A DNA stretch of 63,769 bases, filler included, from Collodictyon triciliatum (lineage: Eukaryota), in assembly GCA_043381765.1 (NCBI GenBank). It is 7 parts of 7 records of this genome, joined end to end, with 100 filler letters (N's around TTAATTAATTAA, not from the genome) between each part and the next. Parts side by side here need not be neighbours in the genome. Positions count along the whole stretch, not along the records: positions 1 to 9,313 come from JBHJMP010003074.1; 6 more parts are not named here. The stretch is one strand, 5' to 3'. The notes under the pieces are model-generated. The model had not been told where the DNA came from and did no database searches. It saw only the letters and a list, made by a program, of their open reading frames with translations. Both the position numbers and the translations under genes were made by a program. Of this stretch, positions 1-34,325 are shown piece by piece. Each line of letters starts with the position of its first letter. The stretch's first letter is position 1.

Positions 1-315
1 AAAAAAGAAAAAAAGAAAAAAAGAAAAAAAGAAAAAAAGAAAAAAAGAAAAAAAGAAAAAAAGAAAAAAAGAAAAAAAAGAAAAAAAAGAAAAAAAGAAG
101 AAAAGAAGAACAGAAGAAAAGATTCAACACCGAGCTTGCTAAAGAGCCCAGGAAGTCAGCGAAAATTATTCGCCGAGATGGTGGTTTAGCACCTACAAAT
201 ATTAAATGATGCTTATCGCCGCACTAGAGGAAAAAGTGAAATATATATGGATGGGTACGGGTGATGGTTAAGTCTGCAGGTAAGGCATTATCTTCTAGGA
301 AAGTTGAAATACCTT

Positions 316-3300
316 TCACTCTTCTTCCTGGTCTGCAATCGATAGATCGTCGTCTTCAATTATATCTTCGCAGTCATCTACAAGACTATCTGCCTTTTCT
401 CGCCATAAAGCAGCACTTTCGGCGCTCTTTTCCACAACCCATCCATTGTCAAAACATTTCGCCATCATATGAGCCTGGAACTTGGTAAACTTACCTGCCC
501 TACAATATTCGACAAAATCTTCATCAAATGGAACTGCCCCAACCGAAAGAAGGAGCTTTTTGTTAAATTGGCTCAACCCGTGGACATTTTCCAGTCGGAT
601 ATTCCCACCGTCTAATTTTCTCGGGCCAACACTACGAATGAACCCCCCAGAAACGATCGAATAGGCTCCCAATAAGTTGAATGCGTCACTGGTTTTGTGT
701 ACAATCGCGATTCTTTCGTCGGTGTTTTTTTTCATCACTAGATATCTATCTCGCCTGTAAGTCACATCTGATTTTTGCAAGCAGTAAACTTCATTTCGGG
801 CCACATAATCCCAAATACGAATGGTTTTGTCGGCACTGCTAGACACCAACCATTGCTCTCCATTTGGCCCCTGCACAGCAAAAACATGGTCGACAACATT
901 TGTGTGACCTTGCAGTATTCCTAGTTCATTTGCTGTTTCCACATCCCAGATTCGGATTGTATGGTCTGCGCTGCCAGATGCCAACCACATTTCTCCATTA
1001 GGCCCTTGGACAGAAGAAATGGATTTAATAGCGTTTGTGTGGCCTTCAAGTGATTTTACCAGAGATCCATTTGCCACGTCCCAGATGTTTATACACCCGC
1101 TTTTGGCTCCAGATACCACCCAATTTTCTCCAGCAGGCCCAGATAAATTCAAAATCAAACAGAAGCGATCTTCACTGCTTTCAATTCTCGTGGTGAATAC
1201 GCCGGCAGCCATATCCCAGATGTGAATTGTCTTATGGTTATCGCATGAAGCCAACCAATTTTCCCCGAGGGGTCCCTGGATTCTGCAGATACTCTTGATA
1301 CCATTCCTGTGGCCTTCCAAGGCCTTGACTTCATCTCCACTTGCCAAATCCCAAATTCGAATTATATTATCTCTATAACCACCGGCAGAAGCCAGCCAGT
1401 TTTCCCCATGAGGTCCTCGGATTGTGCAAATGCTAGAGATGGCATCTTTATGGCCTTTTAGCGCTTTAATATGATTACCAGAAGATAAATCCCAAATGCA
1501 TATGACCGTATCTTTACTTGCAGTAGCTAGCCATTCCTCTCCGCTTGGTCCTTGAATTTGACAAGCGCCCGTGATTAATTCCTTGTGGTTACCATAGAGG
1601 CCAATTTGGTCATCAGATATCAATTCCACAATATCGATCTTATTCCCAGAACCTTCAAGAGCCAACCAGTGCTCTCCATTAGGGCCTGGGACGTTGCAAA
1701 CCTTCTGCAATGGCCTTGTATATGAATGCTTGGATTGAATAAGGATCCCGGTAGTTGCATCCCAAATGTGTATGTTTCCATCATAGCTCCCAGAAACCAA
1801 CCAGTTTTTTTTGTTTGGGCCTTGCAAACAGCATAGAAAAGTGACGCCCTCTGAATGACCCTCCAACACTTTGATTTGGCTCTGTGTGGCTAGGTCCCAT
1901 ACACATACTGTAGTATCTCCACTTCCAGAAGCCAGCCAACTCTCCCCATGAGGTCCTCGGACAGAACAAATCCTTGTGACTTCACCTTTGTGCGATTTAA
2001 GCTGAATCATCGACTTTCCTGAAGAAACATCCCATATGCGAATTGTTTTATCATCACTTCCAGAAACCAGCCAGTTTTCTCCGTGAGGTCCTTGAACGGC
2101 ACAAATGCAAGTAACATAATCTGAGTGCCCATCCAGTTTCTTCACCAAGCTCCCAGACATCATATCCCAGATGCGTATTGTCATCAAGTCATCACTAATA
2201 TATGGAAAGTGGCAGGCTGCTGCTAGCCATTGCTCTCCATTCGGCCCTCGAATACCACATGTGTGCGCCACGGCAAAAAAAGGTTCTTGAATGACCTTAA
2301 TTTGGATGCCAGTGGCAATATCCCAGATTCGGATAGTTTTATCATTTAGTCCACCCCCTGAGACAAGCCAGTTTTCTCCATTGGGGCCATGAACATTGCA
2401 AAGACTTATAACAGCTTTAGTGTGTCCTGTTAGTATCCTTATCTGGTTCCCTGTAGCGATATCCCAAATACGTACTGTCTTGTCTGTACTCGCAGATGCC
2501 ATCCATTTTTCCTCATTTGGGCCGCTAATGCAGCAAATAGCCCATATACTTTCAGTGTGTCCACTGAAGGCCCGATGACATCCTCCAATAGTGACGTTAT
2601 TCATATTAGTGTTATTGAAATTGGAGTCTCCCAGTGAGGAGTTGCTCAATATGACACCTTCCAAATTTGCACCAGTAAAATCGGCTCCATCAATTACTGA
2701 GTTGCTGAGATTAGCATTTGGAATATTTATGTGGGACAGGTCCATACCAGCGAAAGACATTCTCATAAAATTTAAGAATGTGATTGCGTCAGATGCTGCT
2801 TTTGATTTTGTTCCGTCGTTTCTCGATGAATAAACGATTTTTAACAAAGCGGATGATATTTGTTCTCTGTTCCATGGTTCATTCGATTCAGTGTTTCCTA
2901 AGTTTTCCATGATGAACTCTCTTACTCTTGTAAAGGCGTGAGGCTCTTCGCATCTCCCAATCTCGCGCGAAATCATTGATAAATACTCGCACGAGTTTAG
3001 AGTTTTTGGATGGACCCATCCAAGACTTTGTTGTAGCCTATCCTTTATTGTGCTCCAAAACACAAATGCCTCCTGGTATTGTCTTAATTTTATGAAAGAC
3101 TGATTGATCTCTTCGCAAACATGCCAAATACCAACATTATCTATTCCATGAGTGTCTTCCAGACTTTGAATTAGAGTTTGATAGAGCAGAATGGCTAGCT
3201 CGTATTCATCCTTGCTTTTCATGAGTCGAATGATATTATCCACCTGTGTACCATCTTTGATGCATACTATCGTATTTGTTTTCTTACGAACCACTGCGGC

Positions 3301-3422
3301 CTTCTGGAAATATTCGACTACTTGATCCAATCTAACAGACAGGTGAGGAATTACAAAAATAATATTAAGCATTTACAAATCGAACGAAAAAGAAAAAAGG
3401 GCAACAATACCAATAATAATAA

Positions 3423-3518
<96 letters not shown>

Positions 3519-4642
3519 GCCATGATATGTATAGCAGAAAGAGATGTGCCTTTCAAGTTGATAATTTGTCCTTCCAACATTTTCAAGGGAGGACGAATAG
3601 TCAGGATGATTTTCTCCAAGTGTCCTCTTTCGAATAATCAATGTTTTCATGTAAGACTCCAAGGCAGGACGATACCTTTTAATTAGAGTTTGACATACAA
3701 CTAAGATAAAAAAAATTGACGGAATTTATTCTCTTTTTGGTTTTTTTTATTTCGCTTCTAATAATTGACACACAAAGGAAATGTATCTTATGATCTGGTT
3801 AAGAAAATTTGATAGAACCTTTTCAGGTCATGGTTAACATTTCCCATCAATTCGTAGCAATTAAGAACGCTTGGATGATTTTCACCTAGTGTCTTTGTGT
3901 AAATTCCTAACGCAACTGCTATTGCAGATAGAGCCTCTTGTATTCTAGATTTTTGATCATAATCATTACAATATATACGTGTTGTTTTGATGTATTTTTG
4001 GATACAAAATCTTGGTTAGATAATCAGGTCGCTCTCATCTACGAATTTTTTTTTTGTAAAATTACTTTCCAGTTTCGATGTCTACTTTAGCCAAATATTC
4101 TATGACAGAGGAGACAGATGGGTGGCTCATTCCGAGAGAATTCTCTATTATTTCCTTTGCCTCCTTGTAATATTTTATGGATTCGTGATACCTGGATCGT
4201 ATCAAAATAGATTATAAGGAGGATTTTTTTTAATATGCGATATTATTTTAAGAAATTTCATTACAAGGGAAGGTATTCTATAAAATCAAATTAATCGAAT
4301 CAAAACTTTTTCTCAGCCATAGATACATGCCCAAGATATTGGTAAGACAATGCCGTCAATGGGTGTTTATTGCCAACTTTTTTCAAACGAATTTCCATAG
4401 CTTTCTTGTATTCACAAAGGGCCATGTCGGTGCTAGTCGATAAGATGTTACAAAATGCCACAGAAAATATTGAACATATGAATTCACATTGAGTGCATAC
4501 TCATTCTGCGCCAAATAAAGATCTCCGAAACGGTCGTGGGAATGAGCTACATGAAGGTCGTTTTCATCAAACAGCTGTAGTCGCATATTCGAAGAAATTT
4601 GAAATTCACTCAGCGCCTCTTTCATCCTAAGTCCTTTTTTCT

Positions 4643-4707
<65 letters not shown>

Positions 4708-7498
4708 GAGCACAAGTAGACAATATAAAAATAACTTTTTCTGCTGCTGGTAGATGAATCCTATTTCTTCGTGTATTGTTGCTAACTTGTCGACATTGTC
4801 TTCAATATCTCGCAAAATATGCAAGCATCTACTATAGCACTTCATGGACTCGTTCCAGCTACAAAATGAAAAGTTGGATTCATTTTTGTTTTCAGTTACA
4901 TGTCCTTAACCTTGATAGTGGCCTACTCTTTTGTATGTATTTTATCAATCTCACTTTTGGAGGTTCTTGTACACACGCCCAAGAGTCAAATAATCTGCGA
5001 CTTCCGAATCTGAAATGATACGGACAATAAAAGTGAGAATAACCACGATATTGATCAGGAGTTTGGACTAGTATAGTTGTGTGTTGTATTGTTGAATAAA
5101 AAAGAATACATCAGATGGACCTTTCAGTTATGTGGATACCTTTTGATTTCACTTTTGCCAGGCGAACATTTAGTACAGACAAAAGGAAAGAATTTTCGTA
5201 GCACTCGAGAAAGAATTCGACGAGCATAGCTCCTTCCCTCTCTGATGACTATGTTAAAGTGAGAATGCAAATTTCCACCAATTTAATGGGACTCTAAAAA
5301 ATATTGTAATAGCTACAGTACTATCATGAGAGAGAGAAATGAAGTAATTGATATGGATTTATACTTTAATGAGAGATCCATAGACGTCTTTGTAATCTGC
5401 AGTCCCTTTTTCATGGATGGCCCGCCAGCACGAGAAGAATTCATAGCGGTAGCGACTACCTAACAGTGTTACGACGACCTAATTAATGGAGAAACTATTC
5501 AATACACATTGAAACAAACAACTCAAAAATGCTGGAGTTACTATTATGATGAGCAAGGGAACGCTACATGTTTTTGTCTTAAGTACTCCACAAGTAAATC
5601 GAATGAACTTCCTTCAAGAAGTTGATAGCATATCTCAGCAGTAACTTCTTCGTCAACACATTCGTTGTCGGAGTACTGACCAAAGAGCCACTTTCCATAA
5701 TGCTCATGAGCATTAATTTTGTCAACAAATTCAGAAAAGTACACATCCCCGACCGTTTTTAGGAGAAGCTGATGAAAGTACATGTATCTAGACAAAGTAT
5801 AAAGTCTTGAAACCGAAGATCATATGTTCTTAGGAAGACTAATGGGGCAGGTGATAATAACCATAATAACAAAACAGAACAAAAAGGAAAAAAAGATGGG
5901 AAAAAGGAAAAGATGGGAAAAGAGGGAAAAGAGGGAAAAGAGGGAAAAGAGGGAAAAGAGGGAAAATAGGAGAAAAAAAAGAAGAAGAAAAAGGAAAAGA
6001 GGAAAAAAGGAAAGAAGGAAAGAAGGAAAGAAGGAAAGAAGGAAAGAAGGAAAGAAGGAAAGCCACATACCTTCCGTTGCGAACAAACAATGACTCCATA
6101 AGAGTGAAAAAGAATGACTTCCTGCGATTTAAAGTTTAAAAAAATAGCTATCTTGGATACGATATGTATACTGGAGGGGAGGGGGTGCATAAATGCGTAT
6201 CACGAACCTAACTACTGTTTTTTCTTATCATATATTGAGTATTTTTATCATATATGCTAACCATTCAGCGAGCTCAAACCCATTTTCGATAGAGTCTTGC
6301 ATATATTTATCTAAATCGCCTTCGCTCAAGCCGATGCGGGAAACGAACAATACTTTCATAGACGTTGCGACAAATGGCACTCCTTTTTGTTTGTATAATA
6401 CAATTTTTAAATTTCACTTTTCACATACGAGTATTAAACCAATGAATATATGAAAAGAAATTAGTCACACCTGAAGCATTTATGTCACTCACATTTAAAT
6501 AATAAAAATATAATATGTTAAGAACATCAACAATATGTAAATAAAAAACATATCGTACCTTCCTTGTCGAATTTTTTCCCCCAACGGTTTATAATTAGTT
6601 GATATAGCTCGATAACTCCATCGGTTGATAGTAGCCTAGAAAGTTCCTCTTCAATCTTTTCATAAACACCGAAAACTCTGATTTCATCCAAGATAATTCG
6701 AAGGTAAAGAGGGTGGCCTTGGTTGGTATGTAACAGAGATAAATTACGCTCAGTATATATGAACACAAGATAACATGATTATATCTAGATATTCCTAGCC
6801 AAATATTAACCCGTATCATTAGATTTGTCCAAAATCATTCCCATCTGCATTTCACTCATTTTTTTGTCATAGCGCCTCATAAAGGATTCTGCACCCTCTA
6901 TTATTTCATCGGCAGTCAATTTTGCAACTGGTATTGGATCCAGGCCAATTTGAATGGCAGTCTAGAGTTTACAATTGGATACTTAAAATTTTATGTTATA
7001 TAGTTAAGTTAATAGGGTAGTTTAGGTAATTATTTTCTCATCTTGGTTTTCATCATTGTTTTATATATAAAGTAACGGATTACTTGGCATGATTCATGAG
7101 TGTCTATTGTTGAAACAACTACTGCGATGTTTTTTGGTGTGGTATGAGGCAACCATGTAAGCAAGTGGGGAGCCGGTGTTGCCTGTGACGACTGGATTTG
7201 ATTGACCGCGTCGATGAGGAAGACGAATTTGTCAGATCTGGAGTAAAAGATGATAGGAAAGTCGCATAAGTTACTTGAGTCAAATAAAGGAGAGAGAGAA
7301 AAGAGAATGTATTTGCCATTCGATAGCTGATAAGAGAATAGTTTCTAATTAATACACGATTTTTAAGTAAGTCCATTAGACATTACGTATTTTTTTCACT
7401 GATTCTCCTGATCAATCCATGGAATCCTTCCTTTTCATAACCTGCAAAATACAGCGTATGTCAGAATTAAAGGCAGAGATTTTCCCGGCGTGAAGAGA

Positions 7499-7589
<91 letters not shown>

Positions 7590-9032
7590 CCTGCATCACC
7601 CATTTTGAAGTCGTTGTACTGTTCAAGTCGAGCTGTTAGAGACCAGAAGCGAATAGATATACTACAAAAGTAATAGATATAATTAATATAGTGTGCCTAT
7701 AGATGACAATTGGTGCAATATTAGCAATTGTATAACCTCTCCACATAGTTGCTTAGGTTTGTGCATCCGACAAAATGGTAGAAAATTGTCAAGCCTGGGT
7801 GACTCAGGTTTTCCAAATCTCTTGTTGTTGCTGCCATCAAAGAGGATTTTCCTATGCCTGATTGCGCTGCAAGGACGATGATTTTTGTGTTGTCCGCATT
7901 CAACTGAGCCAAGGTCTAGAATGATTCAAGATGAAATGTTATTTTTAGATAAAATACTAAAATAGATTTTAATTGAGAAAAATCATAAATCCTTTCATTT
8001 TCACTTTCAGTCGAAACGAATAAAGGGAGAAAAAGAAACACACGCCACCTGCTCAGATATTATGTTGAGGAGGTCCTTTCGTCCTCCAAACCCTGTAAGT
8101 CGATGCATTTTGAACTGATGATGAGCCATATCTTCAGGATCTCTGGTCTAATCAGGTGTTTTTGGAGGGTTTATAATGAAGGGATGGAGATAGAAGCAAA
8201 GAGGGGCATTTTAAAGTGTTCCTCTAATGTCTTCTTGGGTAAACTTTGAAAGGACATGATAGGAATGAGATAAACAAACTATTTGATTTCCAAAATCACG
8301 TTCAATCGCAAAAGACAAGTGGTATGTCACGAATTCGGAGTATTCCTTAGCTCCTTTATAAGTAACATGCCCAAATTTAACTTTCACCCGGTCTTTCAAT
8401 TGCTCTTGCCTCCTTCTCTAATTGGTTGTTTATGGCTGAGTTAATAAAAGAAATCAATGTAGCTACCAAAATAGATATTTTTATTGGATCCAAGGATCAC
8501 TTGTCACTAAATCAGATGAAACAGAAGACTATATGATTAAATTATACAGCTTCTTCGTTTTCAGCTTGATAGAGTTGCCTTTCATTATCATTTTTGGCGT
8601 GTTGAACAGCGTGTTGCTCGTCACGGAGATAAAAGAAAGCGCGACTACAAGCAGGTGTCTCGATCAGGCATGCATATTGGACCTACAAAGAATAAGGTTT
8701 GTATTTATTGATGCATTTTTTAACTTATTTGGATGCGCATGTATACGAAGGAAAGAAATAAAATGGTAGTAAATTGAGCGTAGTAAAATAGTTACCTCGT
8801 ATTCGGTAACACTCAGGCCTGGTAATTTGTCGATGAAGGGGAAGCGAGTATTAGTTTCACTTCTCCATTCCACACAATTGTCAGAGGTTCTGTTCAGCTC
8901 AGTCTTGCTTTGGTCTGGAATCCATCCGTAGCGTGCACCAAGAGAGCACACAAAGTATGGGCATTTTTCGATAGATTCCAAGCAGCGAATGACGACCTAT
9001 TTTATTTTTTTCTTAATTTTGACAGAAGCTTT

Positions 9033-9104
<72 letters not shown>

Positions 9105-9300
9105 GTTTTCAGTTTATTTATGAACACTACGCTTGTGATACCAATATTTTAGAGTTTTTGAAAGCGATCTTTTAAAAATAATATATTTGAGGTAAGGCAC
9201 AAACCCATCCTTCGCTACTGTCCTCTGAAGTGAGTCCCCAGCGTAAATCGATAAAAACAAGCTCAATCCCTTTAGACTTGGCAAGCCTCTTGAGTCTAGA
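316..9300 (-). CDS. Multi-exon STAND/NLR-like protein: DUF4062 - NACHT/AAA - TPR - pentapeptide repeats - ~13 WD40 - SEL1-like (5' truncated at contig end)
   Basis: Minus-strand exons give IELVFIDLRWGLTSE (~9210-9300), CLESIEKCPYFVCSLGARYGWIP and SVTEYE (DUF4062), Walker A AQSGIGKS (~7846-7869), Walker B FLIDAVNQI..WLP (~7140-7235), GHPLYLRIILDEIRVFG (~6670-6720), and TPR exons (LGENHPS/LGENHPD, ~3560-4850). The last exon, 316-3331 (acceptor ttag), carries pentapeptide repeats (~2585-2760), WD40s (~800-2565) and MAKCFDNGWVVEKSAESAALWREKA. Confidence 0.85.
3421..3517. repeat. (AAAG)n intronic microsatellite
   Basis: Perfect tetranucleotide run inside an intron of the STAND gene. Similar simple repeats occur at 1-110, 4645-4700, 5880-6060, 7500-7587 and 9030-9100. 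Confidence 0.95.
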
Positions 9301-9313
9301 GGAAGATAAAGAA

Positions 9314-9528: not shown

Positions 9529-10766
9529 ATGTCTCTTACAGATACCAGCATCATGGGGATATTTCGTGCTTGCATCCAATCCCACGAACTCTCTTTGAGA
9601 ATTCTGACTCTCACGGAGTCCATTTTGAGCCAATCACCATCGCATTCGATATGTTGGAACTACAGAAGAGAGGTCCTTGTGGCCTTTTCCGAGCAGGTGG
9701 ACTGGTTGGAGGAGCATCGTAGGGTTCTGGAATGGACGTTGCAAAATCCTAAGTCGTATCAACTTTGGCATCACCGCCGATTTGTGCTCGAGCGACTTCC
9801 AGTCGTACCATTGATACAAGAAAACGAAAATATTGAGGAGATATTGGACGAAGATGAGTATAATTACCAGGCATGGAGTTTTAGGTTAATATTTTCTATA
9901 CCACACTATTATTATTTTTTACTCTCTTGTTGTATTGTCGCCCTTTTCTTTATTTTTCCAGTAATCCAGTAGGATAACACGAACAACCATGCGCTTATAA
10001 GTTCTTACATGTGGAAATAGACAGTATCTAGTTGAGAAGGCAGATACATGGGAGAGTGAGTTCGACTACACTGCAAGAAGAATCAGGGAAGCACCGCACA
10101 ATAACTCTTTATGGAATCACCGATTCTTTTTGTATCAGAAGAAGGGCTGGACAGAAGAAATTCGTATTCGAGAGATTCGGTAGTCCATGAGATGTTTTTT
10201 GTTCTTATTCTTGTCGTTCTGATTGTCGTTTGTTCTAGCCGTTCTGATTGTAATTTATCTTCATAATGTCATAGTGCATCAGTTTATTGATTGAAAATCC
10301 TCAGCTGTTTTCCCGCCTTAATCTCGACACTCTGACCCAGCTTAGTCACAGAGATTGTGCGCCTTCACCCCACAGCCGAAGCTGCTTGGAGTTATATCCG
10401 TGGGTCAGTCTCACCAGCTTTGGATTATTTATCTCTGAATATTCTCATCATCTTCCTACGACTGGATTTGGCTATGCACCTTTAATTAATGACCAACAGA
10501 AGGGAGAAAAAAAAGAACAAAACTTTATGGGCAATTTAGTTGGGGTCTAACAGCAACAATACAGGGTCACCAATCATCAAATGGAGGCCTACCCCGCCGT
10601 AAAACATCTATTAAGTGACCCGCTCTTCCACAAATCCATCTTTTGCCTAGTTCTGCAGCTTGAAATGCTTGAAAAGTCGCACCAGAGAACCGACTTGGAG
10701 GCTGCTTTGAATGTTAGTCAGTCAGATATTATCATTACTATCATCATTGCGCAGTCGGCCTCATGA
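9529..10766 (+). CDS. Protein prenyltransferase alpha subunit (farnesyltransferase/GGTase-I alpha-like), multi-exon, probably partial
   Basis: PPTA-repeat motifs ICWNYRREVL, NPKSYQLWHHRRFVL, EDEYNYQAWSFR and APHNNSLWNHRFFL (10021-10179), with GT-AG introns between them. Confidence 0.8.
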
Positions 10767-10775
10767 ACATTATTA

Positions 10776-10866
<91 letters not shown>
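10765..10866. repeat. (TAT)n microsatellite next to an N gap
   Basis: Direct sequence; similar (AAT/TAT)n tracts at 14412-14530 and 61430-61600. Confidence 0.95.
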
Positions 10867-11104
10867 NNNNNNNNNNACCTTGTAGATATGTGCCACACTG
10901 GCCGACACAGACACCATCCGGTCAGAGTACTGGCAGAAGCGCCGCTCACAGCAACTCACCCGCAGGCTCGAAGCGCTCCACCGAGCATAAAGAAACCCGA
11001 CCGAGAACACAAGCAAACTCTCCCCACCTGCCGACCCGTCGACACACTCACACCCACACACACACACACACACACACACAAAAGAGCGCAGCCTGTCTTC
11101 TTCG

Positions 11105-12430
11105 ATGCTCTTCTCTCTGCGCCTTCTCCGCCCGGCGATCTTCGTTCTACACCGCTCACTCCCAAGCCAGCGCCCGCCGTGGAAGCCGCTCGGCCCTGCC
11201 CAAACGCCGAGCTCTGCTCTTACTCAGTGGAGGCGCACGCCGCAAAAGCGCCGAGCAATTGTTGCAGCGCGCGATCCAGATCCTGTGCTGAAGAAGCTGC
11301 TCTCTGTGCCGCCACCTGAAGAGCGCGAGGCCGAGGAAGAAGGCGCTGTGCGTCCGGGCTTTCTGAGTCTCGTCAAGGCTGGTGAGTTACAGATCTGCAC
11401 GCACTGCGGGTTTGCGGTGCTTTCGCGGAGTCGGGGAAGAAACGATCGCGGGTGCAAAGCGCCCGGCCATCAGCAGCGGAACTCGGCCCATGTCTTTGTG
11501 CCACTCGACGAGGTTGCGCTTGCGCTCAGGTGGCTGCCCCAGGTCAAGCGTGGCCCCAGGGAGAAGAACATCATCCGCGAGTATTTTGCTCTGACGCGCT
11601 CCTCTACCAGCCTGGGTGCTGGGCTCGAGGATGAAGGTCGTGTGTCTTCGGGTGCTGAGTTTGGTGGCCAGGGGATTACTGCGCAGCAAAGGGATTCACC
11701 ATCGCGCAGTTACTCTGATGCACAAAGGAATACTTTGCAACAAAGGGATTCACCATCACGCAGTTACTCTGATACACAAAGGATTACTGCGCAGCAAAGG
11801 GATTCACCATCGCGCAGTTACTCTGATACACAAAGGAATACTGTGCAGCAAAGCGATTCACCATCGCGCAGTTACTCTGATGCACAAAGGAATACTGTGC
11901 AGCAAAGCGATTCACCATCGCGCAGTTACTCTGATGCACAAAGGAATACTTCTCAACAAAGGGATTCACCATCGCGCAGTTACTCTGATGCACAAAGGAA
12001 TACTTCTCAACAAAGGGATTCACCATCGCGCAGTTACTCTGATACACAAAGCAATACTTTGCAACAAAGGGATTCACCATCACGCAGTTACTCTGATACA
12101 CAAAGGAATACTGCGCAGCAAAGCGATTCACCATCGCGCAGTTACTCTGATACACAAAGGAATACTGTGCAGCAAAGCGATTCACCATCGCGCAGTTACT
12201 CTGATACACAAAGCAATACTTTGCAACAAAGGGAGACATCACCACGCAGTTACTCTGATACACAAAGGAATACTGTGCAACAAAGGGATTCACCATCGCG
12301 CAGTTACTCTGATACACAAAGCAATACTTTGCAACAAAGGGAGACACCAAAACATCGTGATTCACCCCCCAATCGGAATAACTCTCAAGCGGGTCGCAAG
12401 AAATATCATAACGATTATTTAGATCATTAA
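11105..12430 (+). CDS. Orphan intronless protein, 441 aa: basic N-terminus, Cys/His cluster, ~12 x 18-aa repeats
   Basis: Long GC-rich ORF from ATG to TAA; CTHCG...C...H...H cluster; C-terminal half is (TxQQRDSPSRSYSDTQRN)x~12. Confidence 0.6.
   Translation: MLFSLRLLRPAIFVLHRSLPSQRPPWKPLGPAQTPSSALTQWRRTPQKRRAIVAARDPDPVLKKLLSVPPPEEREAEEEGAVRPGFLSLVKAGELQICTHCGFAVLSRSRGRNDRGCKAPGHQQRNSAHVFVPLDEVALALRWLPQVKRGPREKNIIREYFALTRSSTSLGAGLEDEGRVSSGAEFGGQGITAQQRDSPSRSYSDAQRNTLQQRDSPSRSYSDTQRITAQQRDSPSRSYSDTQRNTVQQSDSPSRSYSDAQRNTVQQSDSPSRSYSDAQRNTSQQRDSPSRSYSDAQRNTSQQRDSPSRSYSDTQSNTLQQRDSPSRSYSDTQRNTAQQSDSPSRSYSDTQRNTVQQSDSPSRSYSDTQSNTLQQRETSPRSYSDTQRNTVQQRDSPSRSYSDTQSNTLQQRETPKHRDSPPNRNNSQAGRKKYHNDYLDH
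11671..12350 (+). repeat. 54-bp coding minisatellite, ~12.5 copies
   Basis: Unit gggattcaccatcgcgcagttactctgatRcacaaaggaatactNNgcaNcaaa repeats with period 54. Confidence 0.95.
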
Positions 12431-18723: not shown

Positions 18724-18823
18724 NNNNNNNNNNNNNNNNNNNNNNNNNNNNNNNNNNNNNNNNNNNNTTAATTAATTAANNNNNNNNNNNNNNNNNNNNN
18801 NNNNNNNNNNNNNNNNNNNNNNN

Positions 18824-19930
18824 GAAGTCTGCTTTACACACAAGACACAACCCCCGAAGGCTCTCAATTATGCCGGATGTGACGCAGTCTGCTTCACAAG
18901 ACACAAGACACGCCCTCGAAGGCTCTCCACTATGCCGTGATTACGACGCAGTCTGCTTCACAAGACACAACCCTCGAAGGCTCTCCACTATGCCCGAATA
19001 CGACGCAGTCTGCTCCACACACACGCCCTCGAAGGCTCCCCACTACGCCGAACGTCGACGAAGTCTGCTTCACACACACAAGACACACAGAGGCTCTACA
19101 CTATGCCGAACGTCGACGCAGTCTGCTTCACACACAAACCTCGAAGGCTCTCCACTACGCCGGATGTGACGCAGTCTGCTTCACAAGACACAACCCTCGA
19201 AGGCTATCCACTATGCCGTGATTACGACACAGTCTGCTCCACACACACAAGACACACAGAGGCTCTACACTATGCCGGGATGTGACGAAATCTGCTTTAC
19301 ACACAAGACACAACCCCCGAAGGGTCTGCACTATGCCGGAATACGACACAGTCTGCTTCACACACACAAGACACACAGAGGCTCTACACTATGCCGGGAT
19401 GTGACGAAATCTGCTTTACACACAAGACACAACCCTCGAAGGCTCTCCACTATGCCCGAATACGACGCAGTCTGCTCCACACACACAAACCTCGAAGGCT
19501 CTCCACTACGCCGAACGTCGACACAGTCTGCTCCACACACACAAGACACACAGAGGCTCTACACTATGCCGAACGTCGACGCAGTCTGCTTCACACACAC
19601 AAGACACACAGAGGCTCTCCACTACGCCGAACGTCGACGAAGTCTGCTACACAAGACACAACCCCCGAAGGCTATGCACTATGCCGGAATACGACACAGT
19701 CTGCTTCACACACAAGACACACAGAGGCTCTACACTATGCCGGGATGTGACGAAGTCTGCTTTACACACACAAGACACAACCCTCGAAGGCTCTCCACTA
19801 TGTTGGGATGAGACGAAGTCTGCTTCACACACAAGACACGCCCTCGAAGGCTCTCCTCTATGCCCGAATACGACGTAGTCTGCTTCTCACACACAACCCT
19901 CGAAGGATCTCCACTACGCCCGAATACGGT
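18824..19930. repeat. Modular minisatellite, ~19 units of ~53-64 bp
   Basis: Unit: gtctgctYcac(ac)n(aagacac)n-[aaccctcga|acag]aggctctccactatgcc-[variable 7-10 nt]-gacNNN. Confidence 0.95.
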
Positions 19931-21285: not shown

Positions 21286-22050
21286 AGACTCAACACATTC
21301 CCGTCCATGTGCAGACGCGAAGAACTTCAGGTGAGTATCCCATTAATACAACCATTATTATCATTAAGAGTCTCTTATTTTCTCCATCATTACCATTACA
21401 ACAATAGAAAACACTTGAGCATTTTTTCAGCATATCAATAACCAAAGAACCCATAATAATGTGTCGACAATCCATTTTCCAATGTGCATTCTCCAGTTTC
21501 TGATTGCAGAATTTCGGCCACTCTCCAACCGCAGCGACGCCGGACTTAGCACAAAGAGACGCATCCGTGCAGGTGATTCAGGAAACCCACGAACATGCAG
21601 CAACTCCTCCGCACCAACGCGACTCATGTGGGCACCCCCAGTATTCCCAGCCATATGGCCATTCCCAGGTCTTTGGTGACGCCCGGTGACGCACGCGACA
21701 AGCACCCGGCTATTCCCAAGACTTTCGATGCAAGAGGTCAACCTTGGCTGTGGCCAACCCCGAACCGGTGAATTTCCAAGGAAGCACAAGCACACAAGTT
21801 CTGCACAAGTCGTCTTCTCTGAAAAATCCGCGGGCCTTTGCGGGATATTTAACCTCGTCTTGTCGAAATCCTTCCTTCTCTTTTCTTATTCACAAAGTAC
21901 TTTCTGGTTTCCGTGTGCACAACCCTACCGTCCTGACTCGAGTAATTCTGTCCTGTGTGATTGTGAAGTTCACTCATAAAACAAATATATGATGTGTATT
22001 GTATTGACACATAGCCAGTACTCATATATACACAGACGGAATCTGTCCAG

Positions 22051-25000
22051 ATGTCCGACTACCTCACACCTGCCCAAGTGGATGAGCTTTTGGAAGAAGT
22101 CCGGAAACTCTCCAGGGATCCTGATATTGCCAGTCTAAAACGCTCCACATCTCTGAATCTCGGTGAAAAGAATCTGTCATCTGTGCCGCCTGGTGTTTTT
22201 CTGTTGACTAGTCTGAAAGAATTGTGGCTTGAAAACAATAAGCTGTCATCGCTGCCTGCACAAATATCGTGTTTGACTGGTCTCACATATCTCGATGTTC
22301 AAAACAATAAGCTGTCATCACTACCTGCACAAATATCGTGTTTGACTGGTCTCAGTGTTCTTGTTGTATGTGACAATCCGGTATGTTTTTATTCATATAT
22401 TATATTATGTTTATGTTTAGAAGAAAATGACTGACAACGATACACGCAGATGGAGGAGCTTCCAGCACAGATCACAGCACTCACAAATCTGAAAGAACTC
22501 TACATAAAATATACATACACACAAACCATAAAGAGAGCCCCGCGTGGCATCTCAAATCTCCCCTGCTGGAACAACACAGGATACTATGACTACCAACACA
22601 TCCGCGCTCTGCAGCTCTACGACCCCGTAAGCACACATCCACCCCCAACCCCCACATACACAACACAGGACACAACTAACATAACCCTAGGTCGATACCG
22701 CAGCTGAAGCTAAAAGAGCTGAAGAGGCTAAAAGAGCTGAAGAAGCTAAAAGAGCTGAAGAAGCTAAAAGAGCTGAAGAAGCTAAAAGAGCTGAAGAAGC
22801 TAGAAAAGCTGAAGAAGCTAAAAAAGCTGAAGAAGCCAAACAGAAACTGCTGCTCGAAAGACAGGTAAATGAACAACCTAAAATAAAACCACCATAATTA
22901 ATAATAATCTTTCGGGGATCTCACAAATATGAATATTAGACCCAGTTCGTGCAGGCCAAAAAGACAGTCCACCCAGGTTTACAATAAATCCATCACTGAA
23001 AGCGAAAGCAAAAAAATAAAATAGTTGTGGATTTTGTACTAACGACAACTACACAGACCAAACAAAGACAGAATACAAACCGTTCGCGGAGGGAGAGGTC
23101 TTCGCCTTGCAAACACCCGTCACAGGAGAGTAAGCAAGCGTCTAAGATCCATTCGATTATGAACACAATATTGGTATATATGGAAGCAAAAAAAAAACTC
23201 TCACTGAGCCCTTCATAACAGCGCATTCAAGGTCAGCAGCACAGATGGCGAATTCTTCATCGAAAAGATCCACGCCAAGGAGCTCAGCCCAGGGTGTTGT
23301 GGAAATGCCTCGCCCAAAGGTGAAATGCTGTTCATCACTATTGAGGAATAAAAAACCCTTTCTACTTTTCTGGTTGCCTTACCCGTTACCTTTTAGACCA
23401 ACAAAAGAGAAGACACAAATTGGCCAAAAAGGAAAAGCCAGCCCAGCAACTACAAGACGAAGAACCTCAAACAAACACCATAGACACACCTGTATTCATC
23501 CATTCTTTCGATCTGAGGACCCGTTTTCAAAAACAATAAAATAAAGCAAATACTAACTTAGCTTGATTCTAGAGCGAACAAGAAGCCAACGTCTCTGAAG
23601 CCGAAATCAATGCCTGTCTCAGCGGATGCCTCTGCGGCGTCTGCGTCAGCCAGTATAACAACCCGAGTTTCCTGCCATGCCAACACACATTCTGCTCCGG
23701 CTGCATAAAGACAGTCACCGACTCAAACGAAGAACCGCCGCTTCGATGCCCGCTATGTGCCGAGCCAGCCTACGTGGATGGGAACACGGTTGGTGAGTTA
23801 AAGGCGTATGAGTTTGACGCGGCCTCTCTGGGAGGCATGAACGCCGGCCTTGAGGCTGGGAAAGCCACAGCAAGCGTTGTGGTGATCAAATGCAAAGGGA
23901 AGACCAAGGGTCTGAGCTGTCAGAACGACGCTACTCACTACTGCACCGTCTGTGGTGAAAGAGGATTATTTTGCGAAACGCACAGTGATATGCATGCAGA
24001 TTCGAACGATGAAGACCACATCATAAAGTAATATCTAATTTTCGACATACTGATGTATAATAAAGTCATACGAGTTTTTACCTTGGCTATATTTCAAACA
24101 CATTCTCACATTCACTTTCGTCCAGTAAACTCGAGTTCGGAGCCGTACCGAGTACAAAGAAAACGGAAAACTGCCCGATCCACAAGAATATCCCAGTTGA
24201 ATACTTCTGCCCATCCTGCCCCGAGTCTCCATTGAAGTGTGCAAAATGTGTACTGGATGACCGCAATCATTTAGACAAACACATAGAACTTTCACAACAA
24301 GGATTCGACGCCAATTCTATTCTAGCCACCAAAATCCAAGAGCTCCGCAAGTCAGAGACCAAACTAGCACCGAATATTGCATCAATCCAGCTGAAGATGA
24401 GAAAGGTTAGCTATTTCAAAATATTTTATTTCCGTCTAAAAAAATCTGAGTTTGCCAGCATAAACATCACAATAACAACCTTGCCCATATAGGAAGCCGA
24501 GCAGCACCAGAAGAGAGGCAACGAACTCGATGCATTCATCAAAGAACTTGAAGCACAAGTCGGCCAGTTTAAGGCTGAGTCGAAGAAGGAGGTAAGCTCA
24601 ACTTTCTCGCGTTTTCCAGAGTTTTTTTTAAAAAAAAAAAGTATGCCATATTCCACAAGGATATTAATACCTACAATATAACCCAGCTCGAAGCGTTGAA
24701 CGAGTCCATCCTTGGCCCGCTGAGGGACTCGCAGAACAGCCTCATGAACGAAATGCGCCGAATCCACATTGCCAAACGAACCCTGCGCAAGCTGATTGAA
24801 AAGCCCGAAGGCGAGCGCTCCCTGATCCAGATGGGCAACGCACTGCGCTTCGCCAACCAAGTCCTTTATTCCAAATACGATACACCAATTGAGATTGCCC
24901 CACTTACCTTTGTCTCGAGACTGCCGCGAACCATCCTGGACGACCTCAAGAGCATGAACGAGACATTCATGTTTGGCCTGAGCACTGCTGAGGAAGCAGA

Positions 25001-25907
25001 AGGAGCAACGAAAGAAGAGGCCAAGACGAAGACAGAAGCGCTTCACTCGATCTCCGCCTCGCCAGCAAGCATCAAGGCTCCCAGCGCCTCGATTGACTCG
25101 TCGACTGGTGATGCCCGAATCGAGTGTCCGTGGGCGGTTTGCGTGCATCCACGGAACGGTAACATCTATGCGACGGACGAAGATTCGCAAAAAGTTCACA
25201 TTTTTAGCAAAGACCTCAGCCATATTTCCTCCCACCACACCGGACTCATCATCCCAAAGGCTCTTCACGGGCCAAGAGGAATCGCCATCTCCAACGACGG
25301 TCTCATTGCGGTTGCAGACTGCGAAGGCCACTCTGTGAAGCTCTTCACCGACCAGCTCACGCTTGTCAAGACCATCGGCGGAAAGAAGGGTAAGGAGAAC
25401 GGCCAGCTCAATCGCCCATACTCGGTTGCTTTCGACAGTGAAGGAAACCTCTACGTGGCCGACTCTGGGAACCAAAGAGTCCAGAAGTTCGACAAGAAGG
25501 GCGCGTTTGTCTCTGTCATTGGAGGCGCGAGCGAAAGTGGCGGCTATATCAGCTCGCTTATCAATGGGGTCTGCGTTAATGAAGAGGACAAGCTCTTAGT
25601 TCTTTGCGCCGGCTCCGACAGAGTCCGCATCTTTTCAAAGGACGGTATTTTCGAAGCTGAAGTCAAGCTGGAAGTGCCAACAAGCGTCGAGGCCTGGTCG
25701 CATATTTTCCGCGCCTCTCCCGGTGTCTTTGGTGTTTGCGAGAACAAGACCGGGACAGTCGCTTTCTACAACTACCAGGGCACAGTTCAGCACCGCATCC
25801 TCTTGGACGGCTGCCTGGGCGCCTGCTTCGGACTCGACGGCACCTTCTATGCCACAAGTCTTTCGCTAAAGTCGGTCTCTGCTTTCTCTGCTGACAATTC
25901 CCAATAA
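22051..25907 (+). CDS. LRR - (AEEAKR)n - SH3-like - RING - B-box - B-box - coiled coil - NHL (TRIM-NHL-like E3 ligase with N-terminal LRR)
   Basis: Phase-consistent exons 22051-22380, 22450-22626, 22691-22864, 22940-22976, 23057-23129, 23222-23319, 23397-~23491 and 23573 onward. RING CGVC..PSFLPCQHTFCSGCI..CPLC; B-boxes (HYCTVC..FCETH..H; CPIH..YFCPSC..CAKC..H); NHL repeats (GPRGIAIS..IAVAD, LNRPYSVAFDSEGNLYVADSGNQRVQKF). Confidence 0.85.
22703..22835 (+). repeat. 18-bp coding repeat (AEEAKR)n
   Basis: gctgaagaagctaaaaga repeated ~7-8 times; charged single-alpha-helix-like linker. Confidence 0.9.
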
Positions 25908-26145: not shown

Positions 26146-28160
26146 GTTTTTTTTTTTTTTTTACCAGCTTTCATTTGGATACCCCATAAAAGATTCCCTT
26201 CATTCGATTCAAAGTGTAGCGAGGTTATGCCATACAAAGGGGCGAGATAGGTGCGCTTGGTAGAGCAAACGCGAGTAGGGGAATACACTGCTGCGAAGAG
26301 GCGAGCACTGGAAAGAAATTAGTGATAGCGAGTTGGTCAGGTGGGCGTCCCAACTGGTTGATTGGTTGCGTGGGTAGCAGGGGTTGGATGTGCTGTGGGA
26401 GTTATCTTACGACCCATTTCCACATCTCTCTTCGCTTGCGGTCAGAGTAGCGAAGAATGCGAGCGTGTTTCAGCAGGTTGTTCAGGAAGCTGTATTGCAC
26501 GAGGCTCTCAAGCCTGGCTACATTGATTTCTCGTTCGGGTGAATCATTAGAGCGAGAGAATGCACGCACACTCCATAAGGACCACATCATATGTCCCCTT
26601 GTGACTGTCCAGAGTATTCTAGAGTCGTGGGTCATTTGGTATTGTGGGCCAAACAGGATGTCAGATGCGCTGAGTCGGTTGGGAGCATAATCAAGCTCAG
26701 AGAGCATCTTGTGGGTAGACTCTGTCACTTTTTGAGCAAGAGAGCACTTCACAAATGTGTGTTCGATAGAGTCATCTCCACTATGGCGCATGGTGTATTC
26801 TGGAGAGGTCGTTGCTGCATGGACTACACGCGCACTTATCCACAGCTCTCTGTTGGAGATATTGAGAAGTAGGGCGCGGTGCTTCGGTAGTAGCTGAGGT
26901 ATACGGGCTTGCTTCCAGCTTTTGACTATTGGCGGGTCTATAATGCCTATGGTTTCAACCAAAAGACTCGTCTTCTCCGGTTTGTAAGAATTCAGTTGAT
27001 GAATTTATATCGAAACAGCTTGGAGCACGCCATGGCAACCGTGAATTGTGGAGAGTCCGGAGTAATGGACCGCCTTCGGTTCTTCAGGCGAAAGAAAAAT
27101 GGCGACGGCGCTCCGTATGAGATGAGATGTTGTGAGCGTCATTCTCCTTTGTTGTTCAGGACAGCTGTGGTTGAGGTTTGCATTCGAGGAGTGAAATATC
27201 GTTGCATTTTTCGGCGTTGCGAGGCTCCCATCCTTTTGGAAAGCGACTTGTTGCAGGATGAAGGAGCTGTTTCCTTGTTTCGACTTGATGATACGGGAGC
27301 TTTATGGTTTATCCCGGCAAGGTTGGCAAGTGGATGCTTCATTTAAAACCCTCATTTCCGCTCCGGGTTGAATCCCAAGATATACATAAAGGAGATTCAG
27401 TCCATAGTGACCAGGTGGGTGTTACGATGTCTCTGTCCTTGCGGCTCACCGCCGTGCTGCTTCTCCTCTACATCTTCTTTACTAGCCCCTACGTTTGCGC
27501 GTCTCTGTGAAAAGTGTTCATTGGTGCGTGGAAAAAGTTGTGGTGTGGTTCTCTGTTCAGAGGAAATGATGCTCGCGCTGGGGTGACAACACGGAGTCAA
27601 TCAGAGAATCCACCCACTCGGCAACCTTTCGGATGCCTGTTAGATTAAATGCGCTTATCCCTAAGCGAATCACTACATGTGACTTCAGGGAAGAAAATAT
27701 TCATTCCAGAAGAATGCTTGCTTCTAAAAACGACTGCTGTCAATGATGTTTTTATGGGTGTAGAGTGAGGTAGTCAACTAACCACGTATGGAAAATGAGA
27801 TGGCATTCCATTCTGCAGAGCCTGCTGAATACACATTGTGGTCAATTCCAAATCAGTCCAGCCGAGGAAACAACACCAAGAGCCGAATTTTCTTTCCAGC
27901 CCGTGGATTGTGCCTCTGCCTTTGATATAAGGTATTTCGCGTTTGTTGTCGCATCAGGGCACGAGGAAAAGTGTGAAGGAAAAGAGCGAGGGGAAATTCT
28001 GCCCAAAAGCGCGCTTGAGGCACAAGTGGATTCGCTTGGTTGGCATGGATGATTCTGGAGACATTTCCGCCGAGACTCTTCTCGGGAGACTTTTCCGCTG
28101 TCTGTAGGCTTACTGATTGGCCTGGCCGTCGTTCTTGCGATCACGTCCTGCCTGGCGCAG
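26146..28160 (-). mobile_element. Decayed LINE (L1/Tx1-like) ORF2 with zf-RVT-like C-terminus and poly(A) tail; RT core apparently deleted
   Basis: YVYLGI (~27370-27390), IGIIDP, DDSIEHTFVKCSLAQKV and HMMWSLWSVR motifs; poly(A) on the minus strand at 26146-26162; multiple stops and frameshifts; no YADD motif seen. Confidence 0.7.
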
Positions 28161-28162
28161 AT

Positions 28163-28284
28163 CTTTGTCCTTGTCCTTGTCCTTGTCCTTGTCTTTGTCT
28201 TTGTCTTTGTCTTTGTCTTTGTCTTTGTCTTTGTCTTTGTCTTTGTCTTTGTCTTTGTCTTTGTCTTTGTCTTTGTCTTTGTCT
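28163..28284. repeat. (CTTTGT)n hexamer microsatellite at contig end
   Basis: Direct sequence; reads (GACAAA)n on the minus strand. Confidence 0.95.
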
Positions 28285-28384
28285 NNNNNNNNNNNNNNNN
28301 NNNNNNNNNNNNNNNNNNNNNNNNNNNNTTAATTAATTAANNNNNNNNNNNNNNNNNNNNNNNNNNNNNNNNNNNNNNNNNNNN

Positions 28385-29340
28385 CGTCGCTGTCGCTGTA
28401 TGCGCGTATCTGCTGTGAGTCTTGCGGGCTCAGTTGTTGCCTGGCCTTGGCTTCCTTGACCCCGTTGCTGCTTGTCTGCTTGGCGGGTGTATTCTTTTGC
28501 GGAGCTTTTACTTGTCGTTGTTCGCGGCTGGTGGGCGCTCTTTGAGGATGCGCTTTGGACACTTTTTGCTCATGACCGTAACCTTTGAAGGGAGCTGGTT
28601 CTTGTGACAAAGAAGCTTCACCACGGCCGTGTATGTGAAAAAGCGTTCGTCCTTTTTGATCTCCACGTGGGTCGGTCTGAAGGGCTTCAGCTCCTCACGA
28701 AAGAGTTGCGGCCACACGTCCAGTGGTATTTGGTAGAGCATCACCAAGGTCTCTGTTGGTTTACTTCTGCTGAAGCTGATTGTAATATCACTTAAACTTA
28801 TTTGCTTCAGCTCGAGAAGCTTTCGGGCGTTTTCTGCAGTGCGGAAGGCGATCAGGTAAAGGCCTTCGCTGTCTGGTAAGCGCAATTGGATGGACTCTTC
28901 CCGAAGTTTGTTCACTTTCAAGAAGGAGGCGAGCGCATCTGTTAGCCTGCGGGCCTTGTTCTTGTTATAGACGACTTGCTCGACCCCGTGCAAAAATATT
29001 ATCCGATCAGACAGACTTGCAGGCGGCTTTCTTTCACGGGTCTTCCTAGACTTACATGCAACTCGGGGTTTTTCCGCACCAGTGTTGGAACCAGAAGAGC
29101 TGGCTGCAACTTGCAATGCCTTCGACGGGTCTAGCTTGTGTTTTTCCATTGGATGTGCGGGAAGCAAGAATGAAAAGGGAGACGCAAGTTTGGGTGGCCG
29201 ATTAAGTGGCGCAATAACAAAACAAGGAGTCTACTCAATCAATAGGCAACTTGGGGGAAGGTAGAAAGGGGACGCTGCGAAGCAACGGGGGGTCGAACGG
29301 GTTCTTCCAAACTTTGTGACACATACACACCACATTTCTC
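28385..29340 (-). mobile_element. 5' part of a non-LTR retrotransposon: ORF1 (gag-like, RRM-like) 28508-29167
   Basis: GC-rich intronless ORF with LYLIAFRTAENARKLL and LVMLYQIPLDV...LKPF, as in L1/Tx1 ORF1 RRM-like domains. Confidence 0.6.
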
Positions 29341-34010: not shown

Positions 34011-34064
34011 GCTGCATGCCGTGGATGGTATATGAGGTTTTGTACAAGCAAGACCCCTCCTCCA

Positions 34065-34102
<38 letters not shown>

Positions 34103-34325
34103 AATGATAATGATAATGATAATGATAATGATAATGATAATGATAATGATAATGATAATGATAATGATAATGATAATGATAATGATAATGATAATGATAA
34201 TGATAATGATAATGATAATGATAATGATAATGATAATGATAATGATAGTAATAGTAATAGTAATAGTGATAATAATAGTAATAATAATATTAATAATGAT
34301 AATAATAATAATAATAATAATAATA
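34065..34325. repeat. Compound microsatellite (GAT)n(GATAAT)n(AAT)n
   Basis: Direct sequence. Confidence 0.95.

Follow-up and report, generated by a model that had tools for sequence, protein, structure and literature searches.

DUF4062 (TeTIR) domains are described in three 2026 preprints (10.64898/2026.09.21.753143, 10.64898/2026.05.01.722283, 10.64898/2026.09.04.749371) as TIR-like NADases that serve bacteria as anti-phage effectors. In the TeTIR/NIR-NACHT STAND proteins TEP1, NWD1, NWD2, TTC41 and NPHP3, the TeTIR domain stands directly before NACHT, and NPHP3 is reported to lack the catalytic glutamate (10.64898/2026.09.21.753143). A different NACHT type, continued by pentapeptide and WD40 repeats, occurs in Mortierellomycota, Mycoavidus/Glomeribacter, Reticulomyxa and Paramecium (PMC11291939). 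In the HNWD genes of Podospora anserina, WD40 repeats undergo concerted evolution across loci, with four selected codons, arranged as two pairs, on the propeller top (PMC1805685). Here we analyze a gene of Collodictyon triciliatum (NCBI GenBank assembly GCA_043381765.1) that encodes, in this order, DUF4062/TeTIR directly upstream of NACHT, TPR, pentapeptide, 13 WD40 repeats and a degenerate SEL1 motif. It lies in a stretch of 63,769 nucleotides (nt), filler included, hereafter the window, which joins seven parts of the genome; the contig of the gene, JBHJMP010003074.1, makes up positions 1–9313.

We consider it probable, though well short of certain, that the gene stems from an old in-frame fusion of two resident gene types, that its WD40 repeats belong to a pool shared with one of them, and that its product is a non-self-sensing STAND protein with an NADase effector, its function being assigned by analogy. 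The minus strand from 9295 to 316 holds a model of 24 exons with 1956 codons, no internal stop, 22 GT-AG introns and one GC-AG intron. The latter is the junction intron (3549–3332, phase 2), over which 23 exons (9295–3550) join the last one (exon 24; 316–3331, 3016 bp, within a 1018-codon open frame) in frame, as a first-pass annotation of the window had proposed for many short DUF4062, NACHT and TPR exons. The model is 5′-incomplete because the contig stops at 9313; in paralogs, further exons upstream encode a CH domain and the beginning of DUF4062. Sequence past the N-linker belongs to another contig, and genes beyond 9313 were rejected as neighbours since they are located on other contigs. 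The features are as follows (window coordinates; aa, amino acids):

9205–9295, minus strand: exon 1, middle of DUF4062/TeTIR with the RWG loop; equivalents of TEP1 R942-W943 at 9243–9238
8796–8996, minus strand: exon 2, DUF4062/TeTIR core; equivalents of TEP1 C959, R976 and catalytic E1008 (the glutamate is the final codon)
8049–8682, minus strand: exons 3–5 (8682–8548, 8417–8280, 8147–8049), C-terminal part of TeTIR and linker to NACHT
5365–7915, minus strand: exons 6–15, NPHP3/TEP1-type NACHT with Walker A (7870–7841) and Walker B (7227–7198), then helical domains; exons 6–10 at 7915–7737, 7661–7591, 7441–7387, 7237–7084 and 6961–6811, exons 11–15 at 6717–6559, 6382–6262, 6121–6071, 5787–5568 and 5478–5365
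3550–5248, minus strand: exons 16–23, spliced array of 42-aa TPRs, one repeat period per exon; exons 16–18 at 5248–5140, 5009–4955 and 4858–4736, exons 19–23 (five of 126 nt, phase 2) at 4626–4501, 4432–4307, 4191–4066, 3944–3819 and 3675–3550
3332–3549, minus strand: junction intron, 218 nt, phase 2, GC-AG
2962–3331, minus strand: start of exon 24, three divergent TPR hairpins, probably recipient-derived, homologous to the last exon of TPR-only sister genes
2866–2961, minus strand: inferred fusion seam (aa 1076–1107), where TPR homology is over and donor homology has not clearly begun
2587–2865, minus strand: probably donor-derived AxxAITxL helices (2865–2758) and pentapeptide beta-helix (2757–2587)
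778–2586, minus strand: 13 WD40 repeats of about 45 aa, the size of a double propeller
316–777, minus strand: donor-shared tail (777–502), single degenerate SEL1-like hairpin (501–382), acidic end and stop codon (318–316)

Pfam matched DUF4062 on exon 2 (E 7.6e-6, above the cut-off), the NPHP3_N/AAA P-loop (E 0.004), TPR_12 on single exons (E 5e-5 and 1.6e-5), pentapeptide (E 1.8e-11) and WD40 (E 3.8e-73). The 13 WD40 repeats agree with the earlier estimate of about 13 and are spaced by exactly 45 aa in nine of 12 intervals. Two further elements assigned to the large exon stood in part. The additional TPR at its start has no Pfam match, but a profile built on the last TPR exons of sister genes matches it, as do most of 147 lesser profile matches, which are limited to it (multiple stretches, two named TPR proteins), and it forms three helical hairpins in an AlphaFold model. 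The SEL1-like motif is degenerate, with no Pfam match at E ≤ 10 in the window copy, but the same 44 residues match Sel1 in two paralogs (4.7e-7 and 2.1e-5), and another paralog has expanded the motif into a long array (12 Pfam stretches). AlphaFold, run on exon 24 with 13 sequences (mean predicted local distance difference test score 75.6, predicted template modelling score 0.49), predicts, in order, three helical hairpins and three more helices, then the pentapeptide segment, many consecutive beta-blades and finally a pair of helices; Foldseek returned only generic double propellers and Apaf-1. The gene does contain the two superstructure-forming arrays, TPR and WD40, that had been claimed for it.

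Both parent types of the gene reside in the same genome. The idea of a chimera was right in kind. Intron-rich TeTIR-NACHT-TPR genes represent the recipient type. Among 20 loci with a DUF4062 exon, selected for having no pentapeptide match, none matched aa 1111–1300 of the model. Fourteen could be read at the 3′ end, five were cut short (L099, L109, L110, L113, L117) and one, L118, is a deletion derivative; the 14 readable loci supplied nine terminal TPR exons that end in a stop. Most tested intron sites are common to TPR-only genes and chimeras. L117 was rejected as a TPR-only gene, as it runs off its contig and nests among the chimeras. In one TPR-only gene, a 340-aa frame (L102:3580-4614) directly follows the TPR exons and is possibly another added tail; it looks SPRY-like, although Pfam gave no SPRY match. 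The donor type is represented by uninterrupted NACHT-pentapeptide-WD40-SEL1 frames of 1856 to >3000 aa at 15 of 20 loci with long open reading frames (ORFs); these 15 lack the TPR part of exon 24 and 14 of them match Walker A, and the other five loci are long chimera exons. Eleven core donors align to the model from aa 1113–1114 through the tail, and no alignment was obtained between model aa 1–1087 and the donor ORFs. One locus (L087:771-9998; G000 C2561) has a frame of 3173 codons in which a donor-type NACHT unit occurs twice in tandem.

Profiles of the two types meet inside exon 24. The profile of TPR-only last exons matches it up to aa ~1067–1075, so that its first ~125 codons correspond to the recipient's own last TPR exon, and the profile of donor-type proteins matches from aa 1108 on (aa 1108–1211, 116 bits). 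We infer a seam at about 2962–2866, 370–470 nt inside exon 24, and not at the 3331/3332 splice site. The last TPR exon, minus its stop, would have been joined in frame to the post-NACHT part of a NACHT-pentapeptide-WD40-SEL1 gene, by a single DNA-level recombination between an intron-rich TeTIR-NACHT-TPR gene and a resident donor gene before the lineage of Diphylleia rotans separated. Since neither piece contained introns in its parent, the long exon has none, and no retrocopy is needed.

The relatives from D. rotans bear on the age of this event. A profile spanning TPR to AxxAIT was searched against 1.84 billion representatives, and among the best 150 matches considered, three cover the whole stretch, all of them from D. 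rotans. By this protein similarity, the source of the window gene is a probable relative of Diphylleia. The EukProt entries P032243/P032246 (P0265) have the whole chimeric layout of the window family, P040976 (P0264) and P021718 (P0266) span the same seam, and P040774 (P0137) is of the donor type. All are unannotated transcript translations, with no description in the literature searched. Word-based searches for proteins resembling the beginning of exon 24 gave only generic pentapeptide matches (≤43% query coverage) and missed the Diphylleia proteins, so they are no evidence of absence. In a tree of the pentapeptide segment (108 columns, bootstrap not fully settled, two poorly aligned rows left out), 18 Collodictyon and three Diphylleia chimeras form one clade with 99/99 support, and most forks among the chimeras stay open. 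In a tree of the NACHT half, the chimeras and P0265 also form a clade (SH-aLRT 99), with one contig-truncated locus within it. Both trees point to a single, old fusion that predates the split from D. rotans.

These results speak against the route that had first been suggested for the 3-kb exon, namely its capture as a block, by retrocopy or by horizontal transfer from a bacterium or fungus, and its splicing onto the gene. Exon 24 is indeed intronless next to 23 introns elsewhere, and transfer of NACHT-PPR-WD40 receptors between endosymbionts and fungi has been published (PMC11291939). The donor-type query also matched proteins of Mortierellomycota, Reticulomyxa, Paramecium and Glomeribacter besides P0137, so the module was correctly assigned to the type known from Mortierella, Reticulomyxa, ciliates and endosymbionts, and its wider relatives do include those groups. 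Its nearest relatives, however, are resident genes and those of Diphylleia: in a quick donor tree, for which five rows gave no match, the resident donors group with P0137 (SH-aLRT 83–94, a weak grouping on long branches), apart from the Mortierella/Glomeribacter clade. Moreover, the seam lies inside the exon, the fusion is common to Diphylleia, the GC content and that of third codon positions do not differ across the junction (0.417/0.423 versus 0.434/0.405), and no poly(A) tract was seen after the stop on the coding strand. For the window gene, capture is thus largely refuted and we regard it as very improbable; an ultimately bacterial origin of the donor family is conceivable.

Alternatively, the chimeric layout could be ancestral, its last exon having lost introns (for example by recombination with cDNA) and the TPR-only genes being truncated derivatives. 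Such loss does occur: L118:6089-7204 (G000 C1605), which nests inside the chimera clade, has a last exon that runs from the first TPR to a Sel1 array (E 6e-20) with neither pentapeptide nor WD40. The NACHT tree, furthermore, leaves the chimeras either nested in or sister to the TPR-only genes. Yet AxxAIT-pentapeptide-WD40 elsewhere directly continues a different type of NACHT, so a fusion was needed at some time; the TPR-only genes are a diverse set that falls outside the chimera clade, and intron-poor TeTIR-NACHT-TPR genes also fall outside it; and both contributing segments are intronless in the parent types. An ancestral chimera therefore appears improbable to us, and the fusion of two resident genes remains our preferred origin. 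The intron-poor DUF4062-NACHT-TPR genes that served as outgroup (L047:2913-6680 and L048:2100-5504) are 22–25% identical to the model.

Because its junction donor is GC, the window copy might instead comprise two units, or a decaying gene in which a mutated GT donor is no longer spliced. Our junction survey covered 38 loci: the window copy, two that were cut short and 35 evaluable paralogs. All 35 have GT at the homologous donor site and use the same acceptor, some with an extra duplicated TPR exon between this donor and exon 24, so GC occurs here in one of 36 copies; in addition, no RNA spans the junction of the window copy and its repeats are diverged. On the other hand, GC donors are found at other homologous sites of the family, neither a stop nor a frameshift interrupts any of the 24 exons, the acceptor of exon 24 is conserved and exon 24 is colinear with spliced relatives. 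Use of the GC donor gives exon 23 a length of 126 nt and phase 2, like the preceding four exons. The D. rotans transcript protein P0265 (2619 aa) is colinear with model aa 1–1803 at 47% identity and without a gap at the junction. An RNA-like run, which may be DNA, has contigs 98–99% identical to the WD40 part; its contigs at 452–1338 and 1392–1852, with 4 and 8 differences, are uninformative on splicing. We regard two units or decay as highly improbable; the first-pass annotation was right to treat the locus as one gene, and TPR and pentapeptide-WD40 share one open frame within exon 24 whatever the splicing. L004:524-1066, L007:611-1108, L051, L071 and L078 have an extra penultimate exon that combines the beginning of exon 24 with the last part of exon 23; this internal duplication lengthens the TPR array.

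The N-terminal head of the window gene retains the residues expected of an NADase. The head of P0265 matched the TEP1 structure 11gz_A with E 1.6e-16, and mapping through it makes R18, C35, R52 and E97 of the model the equivalents of TEP1 R942, C959, R976 and the catalytic E1008. All four TEP1 NADase residues that lie inside the contig are intact. Compared with Diphylleia and many paralogs, exon 2 is 15 codons shorter. The equivalents of F902 and R914 fall in an exon beyond the contig end; both are present in L038 and P0265, and the phenylalanine is replaced by tyrosine in L034. NADase activity of the TeTIR head is likely on these grounds. The domain layout is NPHP3-like, as had been stated, but the glutamate is present, unlike in NPHP3, and because it is kept the chassis stands nearer to TTC41/TEP1.

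At the other end of the protein, the WD40 repeats appear to diversify at their binding face. The sites equivalent to those selected in HNWD (−15, −13, +6 and +8 from the central Trp, mapped by inference through flanking conserved residues) have a ratio of nonsynonymous to synonymous substitution rates (dN/dS) of 3.16 (bootstrap confidence interval 2.69–3.70), compared with 0.24 elsewhere. With the dS of the four sites alone, our own arithmetic gives a dN/dS of ~1.7, and the choice of pairs lowers dS. Site −16 is also high (3.66), and the four residues occur in 301 distinct combinations among 319 repeats. By this counting method, and at sites that were not chosen blind, the repeats of the family are under diversifying selection at binding-face codons.

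The same repeats seem to have been exchanged between chimeras and donors. At four-fold sites, with six divergent loci left out, WD40 repeats of the two families are as similar to each other (0.53) as within each family (0.51 and 0.53), compared with 0.35 between families for the pentapeptide segment, 0.47 for the tail and a background of 0.28. The best chimera–donor repeat pairs reach 90% DNA identity. The 319 repeats yield 133 disjoint nearest-neighbour pairs. A donor repeat takes part in 51 of them, and 37 of the 51 are mixed, where full mixing would give ~43 by our own arithmetic. Two chimeras, L038 and L040 (G000 C3072 and C2032), are 100% identical over 4.5 kb including introns, then 74–96% identical in the last exon, where their WD40 arrays differ in length and the first repeats of each are slightly closer to donor genes than to those of the other; a near-identical donor of the first mosaic patch was not found among the fetched loci (best 83%). 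Together, these comparisons suggest that the WD40 repeats of chimeras and donors form one pool that has been exchanged since the fusion and diversified at the binding face, a conclusion for the family that applies less strongly to the window copy, whose repeats are more diverged than the family average.

The window gene, intact but 5′-truncated, belongs to a family that counts at least 111 genes and has the full layout CH-TeTIR(DUF4062)-NACHT-TPR-pentapeptide-WD40-SEL1. A genome search with the pentapeptide segment gave 174 candidates; all 150 that were scored match, and in 111 of these the TPR part of exon 24 directly precedes the pentapeptide, a lower bound on matches in which alleles may be counted twice. 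For 48 of the 111, a DUF4062 exon lies 3–9 kb upstream on the same strand, and among 13 contigs retrieved with both ends, eight carry the whole exon chain and five are cut by contig ends. In L079, L080, L081 and L083, chimeras as well, expansion of the WD40 or SEL1 array has stretched the last exon to 1900–2400 codons. A third DUF4062 layout in the genome is the uninterrupted 1891-aa DUF4062-NACHT-WD40 frame of TEP1/NWD1 type at L033:152-5824 (G000 C1526), which has no pentapeptide.

Beyond the chimeric layout, the family size, the parents and seam, the catalytic residues and the variable sites, all read from the genome, the mechanism we propose rests on analogy. The protein may be an intracellular STAND switch that stays inactive until a ligand, derived from non-self or damage, binds the variable WD40 face. 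Binding would trigger nucleotide exchange and oligomerization of NACHT, which would activate the TIR-like TeTIR head to hydrolyze NAD+, with cell death, arrest or a signal as the consequence. A second sensor or, as a guess, a scaffold or autoinhibitory arm could be the part played by the TPRs. The protein is a good candidate for the NLR-like receptor proposed at the outset.

Several observations weigh against this reading. Several glutamate-bearing TeTIRs are weak or inactive as isolated domains (10.64898/2026.09.21.753143). Three presumed-RNA runs gave no RNA over any intron or junction of the window copy, several of its repeats lack the GH or WD motif, and they are less homogenized (0.40 to the repeats of other genes). 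The selected sites were taken from the fungal paper after the per-site values had been seen, so the test was not blind, and Nei–Gojobori (NG86) counting on short repeats is crude. The mosaic of L038 and L040 could be mimicked by alleles or misassembly, and the fragmented assembly may hold alleles or chimeric joins that inflate the copy number. Finally, in a tree of the tail, built without outside proteins and without four divergent donor ORFs, chimera monophyly is not rejected (approximately unbiased test, p 0.255) and the donors stay together (93/94), so topology does not show exchange in the tail.

A role outside defence must also be weighed, in which fusion and repeat turnover are real but the proteins are scaffolds, recognize prey or mates, or undergo neutral gene conversion behind a silent enzyme head. 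The paralogs carry an N-terminal CH domain, which usually denotes a link to the cytoskeleton. The NADase activity of human NWD1, NWD2 and NPHP3 is described as weak, absent or unshown, and no activation mechanism is reported for any TeTIR STAND (10.64898/2026.09.21.753143). Against such a role, neutral conversion does not yield a dN/dS above 1 at a few binding-face sites with 0.24 elsewhere, the catalytic residues are kept in both the window copy and Diphylleia, and DUF4062 is an anti-phage NADase effector in bacteria. We judge a non-defence role unlikely and continue to favour the sensing STAND protein with an NADase effector.

The remaining frames of note in the window lie on separate contigs. 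At 9532–10980 (plus strand), on the next contig and hence not a neighbour, are exons that encode the alpha subunit of a protein prenyltransferase (PPTA, E 1e-16). A RING finger frame followed by an NHL-repeat frame, TRIM-NHL-like, lies at 23573–25907 (plus strand), and a NAGPA phosphodiester glycosidase frame with a likely membrane segment at 32826–34289 (minus strand). An uninterrupted 910-aa LRR frame at 43505–46237 (minus strand) ends in DUF7630 and a hydrophobic stretch and is receptor-like; smaller LRR frames occur at 22015–22434 and 36467–37156. Frames at 26402–29230 (minus strand) resemble the ends of ORF1 and ORF2 of a non-LTR retrotransposon, with no Pfam match for 26405–27004. Long frames of tandem repeats of ~15–17 codons lie at 10991–12430 and 18780–19880.

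If the proposed reading is true, the wider implication, which we advance tentatively as something less than an even chance, would be a combinatorial innate receptor system of ~150 genes in a deep-branching unicellular eukaryote, in which recombination lets two unrelated NACHT chassis draw on one pool of positively selected WD40 blades, and one of these chassis combines an NADase executioner of TIR-like type with an additional sensor array of TPRs. A specificity that evolves in one family could then be coupled to the output of either. Such a repertoire of NLRs with an NADase effector and fungal-style diversification would be without precedent among protists. The gain of a second sensor array by an NLR-like protein can here be followed within one genome, where both parents, the seam and the later repeat traffic are readable. 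The recently recognized DUF4062 NADases would be linked to a sensor under diversifying selection, and the question whether an NLR-type immunity that acts through NAD+ depletion exists in free-living protists becomes testable.

Compared with described systems, the window gene is a variant of the TeTIR/NIR-NACHT STANDs that fits no described subfamily. Described TeTIR STANDs end in either WD40 or TPR (10.64898/2026.09.21.753143), whereas the window gene carries TPR, pentapeptide, WD40 and SEL1 in series, and its family adds CH domains in front (seen in paralogs) and has more than 100 copies. For the TPR-pentapeptide-WD40-SEL1 architecture on TeTIR-NACHT, we found no account in the literature searched, which took in few subscription journals and no preprint supplements. 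With the NACHT-pentapeptide-WD40 receptors (PMC11291939) the gene has in common the AxxAITxL helices, the pentapeptide, WD40 and a post-WD40 tail motif; the resident donor family shows the whole layout of the Mortierella type. In the window gene, however, a TPR array precedes the block and the NACHT is of the unrelated NPHP3/TEP1 type instead of the block's own, the repeats measure 45 aa and a SEL1 end is added. Ectocarpus NB-ARC-TPR genes (PMC3341825) likewise combine a STAND ATPase with one TPR period per exon, but use NB-ARC in place of NACHT and, as described there, have no WD40 module. The closest evolutionary parallel is offered by the HNWD/NWD genes of Podospora, including HET-D and HET-E, in which repeats are likewise exchanged within and between genes and across NACHT clades, and diversifying selection acts on the top of the propeller, at positions that occur in two pairs next to conserved residues (PMC1805685). 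The window gene is not a member of that family because CH and TeTIR replace the N-terminal HET. The two are non-orthologous, and the Collodictyon family differs by its TeTIR NADase, its extra TPR, pentapeptide and SEL1 parts, a fifth variable site (−16), a gene number about tenfold higher and its occurrence in a unicellular protist. Animals, fungi and bacteria already provide precedents for each of the parts and for the evolutionary mechanism, so what Collodictyon presents is a new combination and no new principle.

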